DNA of 64,000 nt, taken from assembly GCF_006345805.1 (NCBI RefSeq), contig NC_043012.1, positions 47,492,001 to 47,556,000 of the forward strand, read 5' to 3'. Shown one piece after another: positions 2,345 through 60,740 of this stretch (position 1 is the first letter of the stretch; each line of letters opens with the position of its first letter). The notes below the pieces were generated by a model that searched no databases, was not told the DNA's origin, and saw nothing but the letters and a program-made list of their open reading frames with translations. The stretch comes from Octopus sinensis. Its lineage: Eukaryota. The position numbers and the translations under genes are program-made.

Positions 2345-2512
<168 letters not shown>

Positions 2513-2726
2513 ATAGATTTCTAAATATAGCAGAGAGTTATATGCAGTAGTGGTACGGTAGAGTAGTTGTATACTGTCGACTTAATCTGACAGTCCCATG
2601 AAAAGAATAACACTACTACTATTTAGTCTTAGGAAGCAGCAACGCTTCCTGTCAGCCTTGACACATTTCCTGTGCCCTTATCTTTACAAGGGGGAGACAA
2701 GCACCTCCACCTAGCTAAGCCTGCAA

Positions 2727-2767
2727 CCAGAGACTAGTTTCTGCGTCTTTGCTCGTCATCAGTCTGG
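2727..2767 (-). ncRNA. Minimal hammerhead motif (duplicate of 1827-1867)
   Basis: Same sequence in the second tandem unit. Confidence 0.7.
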
Positions 2768-3028
2768 AGTAGCATGGCTGGAGATGCCTGTCTAGCCCTT
2801 GTAAACATATAAGAATTCTAGTGAAATAAATCCACTGATTACAAATATAGAAATAATAAATTTCCAAATATCTCAGAGAGATATATGCAGTAGTGGTACG
2901 ATAGAGTAATTGTATAGTGTCAACTTAATGTGACAGTCCCATGAAAGGAATATCACTACTAATATTTAGCCCTAAGATGTAGTTTACAAGGGCTAGACAG
3001 GCATCTCCAGCTAGCAGGCCATGCTACT

Positions 3029-3069
3029 CCAGACTGACGACGAGCAAAAACTCAGAAACTAGTCTCTGG
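3029..3069 (+). ncRNA. Minimal hammerhead motif (duplicate of 2128-2168)
   Basis: Same sequence in the second tandem unit. Confidence 0.8.
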
Positions 3070-3245
3070 CTGCAGACTTAGCTGGGTGGAGGTGTGTGTC
3101 TCTCCCTTGTAAACATAAGGACACAGGAAATGTGTCAAGGCCGACAGGAAGCGTTGCTGCTTCCTAGGGCTAAATAGCAGTTGTGTTATTCCCTTCATGG
3201 GACTGTCACATTAAGCTGACAGTATACAACTACTCTCTCTCTCTC

Positions 3246-4872: not shown

Positions 4873-4895
4873 TAGGGTTAGGGTTAGGGTTAGGG
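4873..4895 (+). repeat. Short interstitial telomere-type (TTAGGG)3-4 run
   Basis: tagggttagggttagggttaggg. Confidence 0.8.
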
Positions 4896-5309
4896 ATAAG
4901 CTGATGTTCTGAGGGGAAAACTGCAAGCTCCTTGTTAATATGACTGTTCTCGATGATACGAAAATACAAACTAACAATAACTTATGGAAATTATTGGGTC
5001 CCATCAGACTGGATTCTCTTAATCCTGGAGATACATCCATTTTAATATAACCATATTGAACTTTATCAAAACTACTATACAGAACTACCATAGAATTTAT
5101 GCTGACGTCTCGAACATATTTTCAGCTCCAATTTCACATAAATATCCAGAGATATTTCAATGGACTAATATTTACTATTTCATCGCACACTAACAATAAA
5201 AGAAAAGGGGAGAGAGAGGGCCGAATCGAGATATTACATTAGGAGGAGTACAACAATTGCTATCTAGAAGCTCATTTCATATATTATCTAGCATTGCATG
5301 TGGTGAATA

Positions 5310-56216: not shown

Positions 56217-56430
56217 ATGTATATATATACACATAAATAAATATATATATATATTATATATATATATATATTATATATATATATATATATATAATATTAT
56301 ATATATATATATGCATATATATAAGGTAGACAATGGAAACAGATATAATAATCATTTATTTATTTATCAGAATCAAATTTGAGACTGGATTGATATCTAC
56401 CCGGATTTTTCTCCTACTTGCTTATATATA

Positions 56431-56470
<40 letters not shown>

Positions 56471-56533
56471 GAAATATTAAAATTACTAAGTCTCTCTAAA
56501 GGAGATTACGGCAGCGTTACTGGATATTAATAT

Positions 56534-56874
56534 TTATCGCCATACTAATATGGCAGTCTAAATATAAGACTAAAGCTGTCGCTGATTAGCTCCAAGAGGC
56601 CATCGCTTCTAGCTAGCTATATGACACACGAACCTGCGTCCATTACAACCTTCGAACAGGGGAGGTCAGCCGCTTCACCTTGCTAGTCAGACATCCCTGA
56701 AACATGTCTGCAGATGTCTGACTAGCAAGATAAAGCAGCTGACCTCCCCTGTTCGAAGGTTGTAATGGACGCAGGTTCGTGTGTCATAGAGGTAGCTAGA
56801 GGCGATGGCCTCTTGGAGCTAATCAGCGACAGCTTTAGTCTTATATTTAGACTGCCATATTAGTATGGCGATAA
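56534..56874. repeat. Long near-perfect palindrome (~162-bp arms, 17-nt spacer) near (TA)n arrays
   Basis: 56534-56695 is the reverse complement of 56713-56874 with about 6 mismatches counted by eye. The spacer contains GAAACATGTC. Confidence 0.95.
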
Positions 56875-57700
56875 CTATTAATATATATATATATATAACT
56901 GAGGAAACTTAGATTACATGGACTCAAAGAATTAGAGGGGTGTAATCTGAGAAATTTGTATAATTGTTTCCAATTCTCTTCACTAGGATTCCCGTTATAG
57001 CCACTCTTTGCCTTGCTGACTTGTTTGTCGTTAAAGATATCGTAGTGTAAGTTCAAATCATTTGGGCGCTATTGAGAGTTTTCTATACTGAGATTCTCTC
57101 GATATCATCTGTTGATTCTATATATATATATATATATATATAGATAACTGGATGTATGTAATACTGAGAAACTTTAAAGTAGTACATCCGCAGACCTAAG
57201 TTTTATTCATTCTCTTAACAAGGAATTAAATTCATTAAGCTTGCTTTACTTTGAATTTTAGCATGAAACCTTACACTTCGTAATTCCTTTTGATAAGAGA
57301 AAATTGAAGTGATTGACTCTTGTGATAATATTCGTGCCCGAAATACAAACATATCTCAGTATAATCTGATTTCAGCTACTTTGGTATAGAGTATTTCTGC
57401 TTAAGTATTACCAGTACGACTTTTGTGAGTTATTCCATTCCATATATGGAAACGATTGTTCATTCAGTTGAATGAAGCAGCCGTTATGCTGTCTATCTAC
57501 CTACTAGAAATTGCAATCAAATCCTTCTGAAAGAAAATTATGAAATTTGTAGAACCCATAACTGAACATAATCCAGAATACACTCTGCTAAAGAAAATAT
57601 TAGATAGAGATACTTAGATTACTTTTAATCATGCATGATTAGAAAACTGAGCTCCCTCTTCATGTATTGAAATTTTATATAACAGTACAACATAATACTC

Positions 57701-59457: not shown

Positions 59458-60740
59458 CGAGGGGCGTTCAATAAGTAATGCCCCTGATCCACTTCCCATA
59501 GCAGTAGAGCAACGAAACTTATTAGTCTTTTCCTACATAGGAACCACCCAGAGGTACGCATTTCTCCCATCGTTTGATGCGGCTCTGGAGACCGTTTTTG
59601 TAGAAGAACCCAGCTTGGTCCTCCAACCTCAACGTGACTTCAGAAATCAAGGCTGCATCATCTGGGAAACGCTTTCCTTTCAAAAACAACTTCATGATTG
59701 GGAAGAGGTGAAAATCAGAGGGTGCAAGGTCAGGAAAGTAGGGGGGATGGGGAAGAGTTCATAGCCATACACCTGTGCTTCTGATCTGGCGACAAGCGAG
59801 TTGTGGACCGGAGCGTTGTCCTGCAGGAGGAAGATGCCTTTGCTGATCTTGCCCCGCCTCTTGATTTTGATAACTTCTCTTAATTTCCTCAAGAGTGAAG
59901 CATAATAGGCTCCTGCAATTGTGGTACCCTTTGCCAGGAAATCTGTCATCACTACTCCGTCCTGGTCCCAGAAGACTGTGAGCATGACCTTGCCAGCGGA
60001 GGGCTGCACCCTTGCCTTCTTTGGAGGGGGTGAGTCACGGTGCTTCCACTACATTGACTGGGCTTTGGTCTCCGGATCATCGTGATGGACCCAGGTTTCA
60101 TCTTGTGTAATCAGTCTTTTGAAAAATTTTGACTCATCTTCTTGGCACATCTCCAAATTCACCCTCGAGCACTCGACGCGTTCTTGCTTTTGGAAAGGCG
60201 TGAGCAACCTGGGAATCCATCTGGCAGACACCTTTTGCATATGCAAATGGTCATGAATGATAGTTTCCACAGACCCGGTACTAATCTTGACCTCATGGGC
60301 TATTTGGCGAATAATTATGCGTCGATCTTCCAAAATGGCAGCCTCAACTTGACGGACAGATGCCACATCAATGACAGAAGGGGGCGACCAGATCTGGGAG
60401 CTGTTTCCACAGAGTTCCTACCATGTTTGAATTCACGATGCCAACGTTTTACAAAGTCATATGATGGGGCATCATCACCATAAGTTACTTTCATTTCATC
60501 AAAAGTCTCCCGTGGTGTGCGTCCTTTCAAATACAAAAACCGGATCACTGCTCGACACTCAACAGGCTCCATTTCACACTTGACTCGGTTCAAACACCTG
60601 TAAATCAGAAACCACAATTAATTCAGAGCTGTAATTTTCCACTTACTCTATAGAGATATAAATGATTGCACATGAAAAATTTCAGCTGGATCAAACAACT
60701 GCAAGTGGGTCAGAGGCATTACTTATTGTGACGTCCCTCG
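59458..60740 (-). mobile_element. Near full-length mariner (DD34D) transposon with ~37-bp TIRs and TA TSDs
   Basis: Left ta|cgaggggcgttcaataagtaatgcccctgatccactt; right aagtgggtcagaggcattacttattgtgacgtccctcg|ta. Length ~1.28 kb. Confidence 0.95.
59522..60572 (-). pseudogene. Mariner transposase pseudogene (frameshifts and an in-frame stop)
   Basis: MEPVECRAVIRFLYLKG..PRSGRP / VSARWIPRLLT..ITQDETWVHH / SAGKVMLTVFWD..LLQDNAPVH / PDLAPSDF / RWEKCV...GSYV, split across several supplied ORFs. Confidence 0.93.

Follow-up and report, generated by a model that had tools for sequence, protein, structure and literature searches.

A Non-Coding Hammerhead Repeat Family of Octopus sinensis Forms Head-to-Head Insertions whose Junctions Do Not Track the Predicted Ribozyme Cut

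Introduction

The described systems that are closest to the sequences considered here are the non-LTR retrozymes of animals, whose mobilization by Penelope-like elements (PLEs) was proposed (PMC7229834; bioRxiv 10.64898/2026.07.22.740005), and the PLEs themselves, which form inverted and truncated copies that carry a tail at one end, are joined through microhomology and are found at microsatellite targets (PMC3846280; PMC8557442). The in vitro work cited here reports that two internal start sites of reverse transcription bound this tail, that the start site is alike on both strands of the target, that hammerhead mutants leave insertion unaffected and that no RNA-seq reads end at the ribozyme cut (PMC11167929). 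Additionally, a hammerhead variant with a U3:A8 core has been published as a natural form from the Cercyon PLEs of Schistosoma (PMC4209133) and is described as active in vitro (PMC3088659).

The octopus family reported in this work shares with the metazoan non-LTR retrozymes, as these are described in PMC7229834 and bioRxiv 10.64898/2026.07.22.740005, a protein-free tandem unit within the 170–400 nt range (350–390 nt in mussel), one type I hammerhead per unit, a GC content below 50%, a strongly self-paired circular fold (known here as the predicted fold of the DNA unit) and co-existence with PLEs. However, its core is U3:A8 where theirs is C3:G8, and it occurs mostly as truncated head-to-head pairs in (TA)n, an arrangement that the available text of these two sources does not describe for metazoan retrozymes, the word 'inverted' being absent from PMC7229834. 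In the latter respect it resembles the pseudo-LTRs of endonuclease-positive PLEs (PMC3846280; PMC8557442; PMC11167929), which likewise consist of head-to-head, 5'-truncated copies with outward 3' ends, a one-sided tail, microhomology at the 5' junction, AT-rich or (TA)n targets and two start sites that bound the tail. Unlike those insertions, the octopus unit contains no ORF and its tail is 59 nt long, in comparison to the 30–40 nt quoted for PLEs; nevertheless, the two start sites of reverse transcription reported in PMC11167929 match the bounds of the octopus tail. With the published U3:A8 variants (PMC4209133; PMC3088659) the octopus motif has in common the covariation within the core and a palindromic helix III suited to cleavage as a dimer. 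It differs from the minimal motif of the PLEs by its location in a non-coding tandem unit and by its 6-bp stem I, distal stem and 4-bp stem II, and its layout is nearer to the canonical animal type I hammerhead.

A first-pass annotation of the DNA studied here had proposed that hammerhead self-cleavage determines where these elements fold back, thereby linking ribozyme activity to the inverted pseudo-LTRs of PLEs. Such a link would have answered an open question; the answer provided by the octopus family is negative, as its junctions ignore the cut, and this agrees with the in vitro finding that the ribozyme is dispensable for insertion (PMC11167929). In a search of the literature by title and abstract, we found no report that relates the inversion junctions of PLEs to the hammerhead cut or describes head-to-head retrozymes, though supplements may hold this family. 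We conclude that the family is a member of the animal non-LTR retrozymes that bears a Penelope footprint, and that the family itself is new.

Materials and Methods

Positions in the family are numbered from +1, the first base after the GTC cut. Copies were sampled by exact matches to short anchors, taken in genome order and blind to their junctions, which provided 295 loci; these contain 160 distinct junctions of the head-to-head type, and the 5' ends of 109 solo arms. Fifteen loci, including that of the window, were excluded from all counts because they had been chosen by their score to a query that spans the region near the cut; the other 15 of the 30 best-match loci entered solely by way of the unbiased anchor lists. 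Expected numbers of arm starts were derived from a length-dependent stopping hazard combined with truncation at the anchor, a model that superseded a constant-hazard model applied to 127 junctions. The loci used for a second test, anchored at +17, overlap those of the larger junction set. Covariation was examined in an alignment of 80 rows from 135 motif references.

Results and Discussion

The Insertion in the Window

The DNA analyzed (referred to as the window) is a stretch of 64,000 nucleotides from the genome of O. sinensis. A palindrome with arms of 162 nt (56534–56695 / 56713–56874) had been reported from it, and this palindrome is real, with six mismatches. Its arms extend for a further 10 nt, which adds one mismatch, and the complete inverted repeat (56524–56695 / 56713–56884) has arms of 172 nt that are complementary at 165 positions (96%; seven differences) with 17 nt between them. 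Belonging to a family with hundreds of copies, it is far beyond chance. The 17-nt sequence, with its ACATGT palindrome and the GTC at 56706–56708, and the mirrored right part from 56713 onward all read as the annotation had stated. However, the 17 nt do not form the loop of a fold-back but are the first part of the right arm, which has no mirror image in the left, and the junction proper is at 56695/56696. Similarly, the placing of the fold-back point 4 nt from the cut is correct for the start of the left arm (+5) but not for the junction, which lies 13–14 nt upstream of the GTC cut. The features of this copy are summarized in Table 1.

Table 1. Features of the head-to-head insertion and its flanks (positions in the window)
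Feature	Positions	Strand	Description
(TA)n target, left flank	56423..56464	.	
Left arm	56465..56695	-	Family +5 to +237; sense on minus strand, 3' end outward; L001 1276-1506; 98-99% to family units
One-sided 59-nt tail	56465..56523	-	Family +179 to +237; left arm only
Head-to-head junction	56691..56696	.	1 nt exact overlap (56695); 4/5 nt with one mismatch
Right arm	56695..56884	+	Family +349 (14 nt upstream of cut), through cut, to +178; L001 1506-1695
Hammerhead 3' half	56695..56713	+	Stem II 3' strand, GAAA, palindromic stem III, GUC 56706-56708, start of stem I 3' strand
(TA)n target, right flank	56885..56897	.	

The insertion occupies 420 bp between the TA repeats. No ORF of at least 120 aa overlaps it, and it carries no RT-GIY-YIG ORF of the kind that marks an autonomous PLE. 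In comparison to the majority sequence of its subfamily, the left arm shows two differences and the right arm five. The copy had been regarded as either fairly young or homogenized; the first part of this stands, whereas homogenization is not needed, because the seven differences between the arms are private or rare variants. These observations fit a young insertion that was mutated afterwards.

The Repeat Family and Its Predicted Hammerhead

The stretch in question is one insertion of a family with a 362-nt tandem unit that is present in hundreds of copies in the source genome (G000). A search of this genome with the right arm produced 1822 candidates, 40 of which were scored, at 95–97% identity, and exact matches to the four short anchors numbered 513, 126, 804, and 212. 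The 71 full units obtained from the first 240 loci have periods of 345–373 nt (mostly 360–365 nt) and fall into three main subfamilies. The longest arm is 1216 nt, and 72 of the 320 paired arms are longer than one unit. The real unit is predicted to fold as a circle with an energy of -122.5 kcal/mol (z = -6.1, 60 shuffles). No coding region was found attached to the unit, the arms being bounded by TA repeats or unrelated flanks, and the first 60 loci share no extension other than a LINE-like ORF in three neighbors (L052, L059, and L060). This ORF, which we take by eye to be a LINE ORF1 with a zinc knuckle, was rejected as a partner. As a separate observation, in L052 and L060 a retrozyme arm is broken at +202 and fused, from about position 1606, to what is presumably a LINE-like element at its 5' end (its zinc-knuckle frame having been labelled by eye), and the two loci, which are far apart, have an identical junction of this kind.

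Copies of the family contain, in order, stem I, UUGANAA, a 4-bp stem II, GAAA, the palindromic stem III, UC and the other strand of stem I, i.e., a complete predicted type I hammerhead. The core pair is U3:A8 in 192 of 194 motifs and UC occupies positions 16.1/17 in 188; position 7 is free, with all four bases occurring (N7), and the stem III palindrome is ACATGT in 129 cases and ACGCGT in 48. The annotation had recognized the motif in the window as the 3' half of a hammerhead, and this is borne out by the family copies, in which the 5' half lies directly upstream of it together with stems I and II. The further suggestion that CUGANGA and stem II should precede it was right with regard to the 5' half and stem II, but the core reads UUGANAA (U3:A8) and not CUGANGA. 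The window copy itself has the 3' half only, which folds as a plain hairpin, and a search for CUGANGA near its palindrome detected no 5' half.

The proposed pairing was evaluated by means of the 80-row alignment, in which 88% of the cells are paired, as against 30–45% in slid controls, and 100 both-side changes are seen, a result reached by none of 500 shuffles; these figures are lowered by three rows that were wrongly picked from elsewhere in the unit and were kept. The both-side changes are distributed over stem I (20), stem II (22), the stem III palindrome (34) and the distal part of stem I (15 rows), but as the rows are related they amount to about four inherited changes and not to independent events. 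No match to an Rfam hammerhead was obtained from 50–64 kb of the window at E values up to 5, or from three loci with complete motifs (L005, L007, and L019) at E values up to 10, and the variant core is the likely reason for this. Sub-threshold matches of miRNA type in Rfam were rejected, as they fall on hairpins and simple repeats. The U3:A8 core would escape descriptors based upon CUGANGA, and it did escape Rfam. The identification of the family ribozyme holds, and from its sequence the motif is predicted to be active in self-cleavage.

Arm Starts and Junctions Relative to the Predicted Cut

If ribozyme cleavage made the 5' end of the RNA and reverse transcription ran off this end, then the cut would define the fold-back point, as had been suggested. 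The start of the left arm in the window at +5, the complete hammerhead motif in the family and two arms that begin exactly at +1 (L118 and the excluded L024) are all in accordance with such a process. However, the arm starts of the family are spread round the whole unit regardless of the GUC, with no excess at the cut, an outcome that the annotation had itself named as speaking against its proposal. Only 1 of 317 paired-arm starts is at +1, where 0.9 is expected; at the 160 junctions, the arm starts no more than 5 nt away from the cut number 10 (9.8 expected), and for solo arms the corresponding number is 5 (3.4 expected). In 117 of the 160 insertions an arm reads through the cut, and the window copy, though not counted, is of the same kind, since its right arm begins upstream of it. 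In the test anchored at +17, 10 of 111 passes (9.0%) terminate in the block that reaches as far as the cut, in comparison to 9.2% per block upstream (p = 0.59), and the other 101 go past it. Lastly, the arms of a second hammerhead family in the window (see below) are joined far from the cut, about 80 nt upstream of it in one arm and about 245 nt in the other. A fold-back defined by the cut is therefore highly improbable, and the proposed connection between hammerhead cleavage and inverted Penelope pseudo-LTRs fails on the statistics of the junctions. As 10 of the 160 junctions have an arm start within 5 nt of the cut where 9.8 such ends are expected, the 4-nt distance seen in the window is a coincidence that occurs at the expected rate. 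An early hint of clustering (5 of 14 second arms at +1 to +18, the window's aside) was discarded because it came from 30 score-picked loci and was biased.

A weaker form of this proposal would be that a few per cent of the arms derive from cut, linear RNA and lost 3–12 nt in joining, which would give rise to a bump at +4 to +13. In this interval 19 paired arms start where 9.5 are expected (nominal p = 0.004), and for all arms the numbers are 24 and 12.8; an excess here was also present in the smaller first set of 127 junctions. For the interval +1 to +15, which was chosen after looking, 25 starts compare with 14.2 expected (nominal p = 0.006). However, the family-wise p values for the +4 to +13 excess are 0.34 for paired arms and 0.27 for all arms, the starts at +1 to +3 are flat (3 vs. 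2.7), no bump is seen in the anchored test, and at most about 10 of the 317 ends are at issue. Further, a bump of equal size is observed on the other strand of stem I at +326 to +335 (17 vs. 8.3), and therefore structure or a short palindrome accounts for the +4 to +13 excess as well as cleavage does. We consider a minor class of this kind unlikely. In L024, a single score-picked case, the arm that starts at +1 is joined to its partner through a short palindrome common to both strands of stem I.

The strongest hot spot for junctions is at +39 to +48 (26 vs. 10.1; family-wise p = 0.005), which is the sole one to survive correction and is located at a long predicted stem. Several junctions (L143, L177, L190, L286, and L305) join the complementary strands of this stem, +39 to +48 with +281 to +291, with overlaps of 9–12 nt. 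Another locus (L256) has four arms in two head-to-head pairs, all of which begin from +44 at a 6-nt palindrome.

Outer Ends, Their Pairing and the Insertion Targets

The outer ends of the arms are found at two sites 59 nt apart, +178 and +237. Where both ends of a pair fall on these sites (124 pairs), one end of each kind, and with it a tail on one arm only, is present in 119; in a further 36 pairs one end or both lie elsewhere, being broken, rearranged, or truncated by the edge of the locus. The same pairing is observed in 31 of 34 pairs from sets that were not anchored on an end (p = 4e-7). At the two sites, 239 of 280 outer ends adjoin (TA)n and 5 adjoin (TAA)n, two of the four anchor sets having required TA. 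Within such (TA)n flanks a target site duplication would not be legible as such. At the junctions, BLAST-called overlaps of at least 2 nt are seen in 113 of 160 cases, in comparison to 16% for random joins, and a microhomology of 2–4 nt is typical. The layout of inverted Penelope pseudo-LTRs, which the annotation had invoked, is thus upheld, and the presence of a full Penelope footprint on a non-coding hammerhead unit supports the mobilization of animal retrozymes by PLEs.

Long palindromes can arise as artefacts from chimeric reads, and an inverted repeat of this kind could also be a miniature inverted-repeat DNA transposon (MITE). Both of these explanations are extremely unlikely for the present insertion, as its arms show seven differences and lack symmetry at either end, the same end rule is obeyed at 160 other junctions, which are themselves joined differently, and the family has tandem units but no fixed termini or internal region as in a MITE.

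For the palindromes of Penelope elements, self-priming has been proposed (PMC3846280), in which the cDNA of a single priming folds and is copied back, so that the first arm serves as the template for the second. The close relatedness of the two arms is in keeping with this: 117 of 118 pairs have both arms from one subfamily, and a rare variant is common to both in 7 of 109 pairs, in comparison to about 1% in controls. However, a self-primed second arm should lie within the first, and the arms are not nested in 72 of 119 pairs, the 47 nested pairs being fewer than the 59.5 expected from permutation; symmetric junctions show no enrichment (9 vs. 10.5), and the right arm in the window holds 18 nt that are missing from the left. 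The lack of nesting and of any enrichment of symmetric junctions argues against simple self-priming, and although it could partly be saved if the first arm were trimmed once copied, we regard this explanation as improbable.

A different question is whether +178 is a priming site at all, or whether it marks an AT-rich place where an endonuclease cuts to resolve the intermediate, an explanation that has been suggested for the tail (PMC8557442). The ends at +178 are more scattered (170–182) than those at +237 (112 of 140 at 237) and their site is TA-like, and with a resolving cut one end of each kind would arise by itself. On the other hand, both boundaries of the tail were mapped as start sites of reverse transcription in vitro, according to PMC11167929, and among 42 solo arms of the octopus family, 14 end at one of the sites and 19 at the other. 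A resolving cut at +178 is hence rather doubtful, though less so than self-priming.

The counted rule of one end of each kind constrains how inverted pseudo-LTRs can form. It is not explained by the assay of PMC11167929, because the start site there is the same on both strands of the target. One possibility, to which we assign somewhat less than an even chance, is that two coordinated primings take place, one at either side of the break and obligately one at each of the two start sites, which lie 59 nt apart; that their template is a retrozyme RNA in circular or multimeric form that is read through the ribozyme; and that the pairing in 119 of 124 cases is the trace of an asymmetric dimeric Penelope enzyme. 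If this is true, it would point to an asymmetric dimer that the in vitro study, in the text cited, did not resolve, and the abundant family would offer a ready substrate for testing it.

Candidate Penelope-Like Partners and the Proposed Mechanism

The source genome contains elements with a reverse transcriptase together with a GIY-YIG endonuclease at the C-terminus, in frames of 780–781 aa with RVT_1 and GIY-YIG matches. At least three families of them (L331, L336, L345, and relatives) end in minimal hammerheads with the U3:A8 core, their 3' ends join (TA)n, and two of the families also have the ACATGT palindrome. A CxxC-type motif before the endonuclease suggests that they belong to the Neptune or Nematis clade, as these are described in PMC8557442. 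Among 40 GIY-YIG loci, BLAST identified no partner PLE that clearly resembles the unit in sequence, and the sole strong match to the unit proved to be a separate insertion beside a PLE. Of three PLE ends, two bear a weak antisense likeness to the 59-nt tail (13 and 18 of 500 shuffles), which was noticed by eye first. Fragments of PLE ends near three retrozyme arms were considered as chimeras but rejected, since TA or other simple repeats lie in between, which points to co-targeting.

Based upon these results, the insertions very probably represent two truncated copies, placed head-to-head in a TA repeat by the reverse transcriptase-endonuclease of a PLE that used an RNA in circular or uncut multimeric form as its template on two occasions, with the copies joined by chance microhomology and not at the cut; the read-through of the cut supports a template of this form. 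The unit would be transcribed, and its RNA would be cut to monomers by the ribozyme and circularized, or else left multimeric. The endonuclease of the partner PLE would probably nick (TA)n, after which one cDNA would be primed from +237 at one side of the break and one from +178 at the other. Synthesis of both cDNAs would continue past the ribozyme site and end early, for the most part close to stable stems, and the 3' ends of the two would then anneal over 2–4 nt. The role of the ribozyme would in this scheme lie upstream of insertion, where it likely serves in making RNA of unit length.

Other Features of the Window

A second hammerhead family, unrelated to the first, is present at 1612–2345 and 2512–3245 of the window. 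It has a canonical C3:G8 core and a period of about 343 nt, and it also forms a head-to-head pair in (TA)n, which occurs twice in tandem about 900 bp apart, with motifs at 1862(-), 2133(+), 2762(-), and 3034(+). In addition, a frame of 122 aa at 60049–60417 (+) resembles what we take to be a piece of a mariner-type transposase, and a short run of TTAGGG repeats, presumably telomere-like, is found at 4873–4897.
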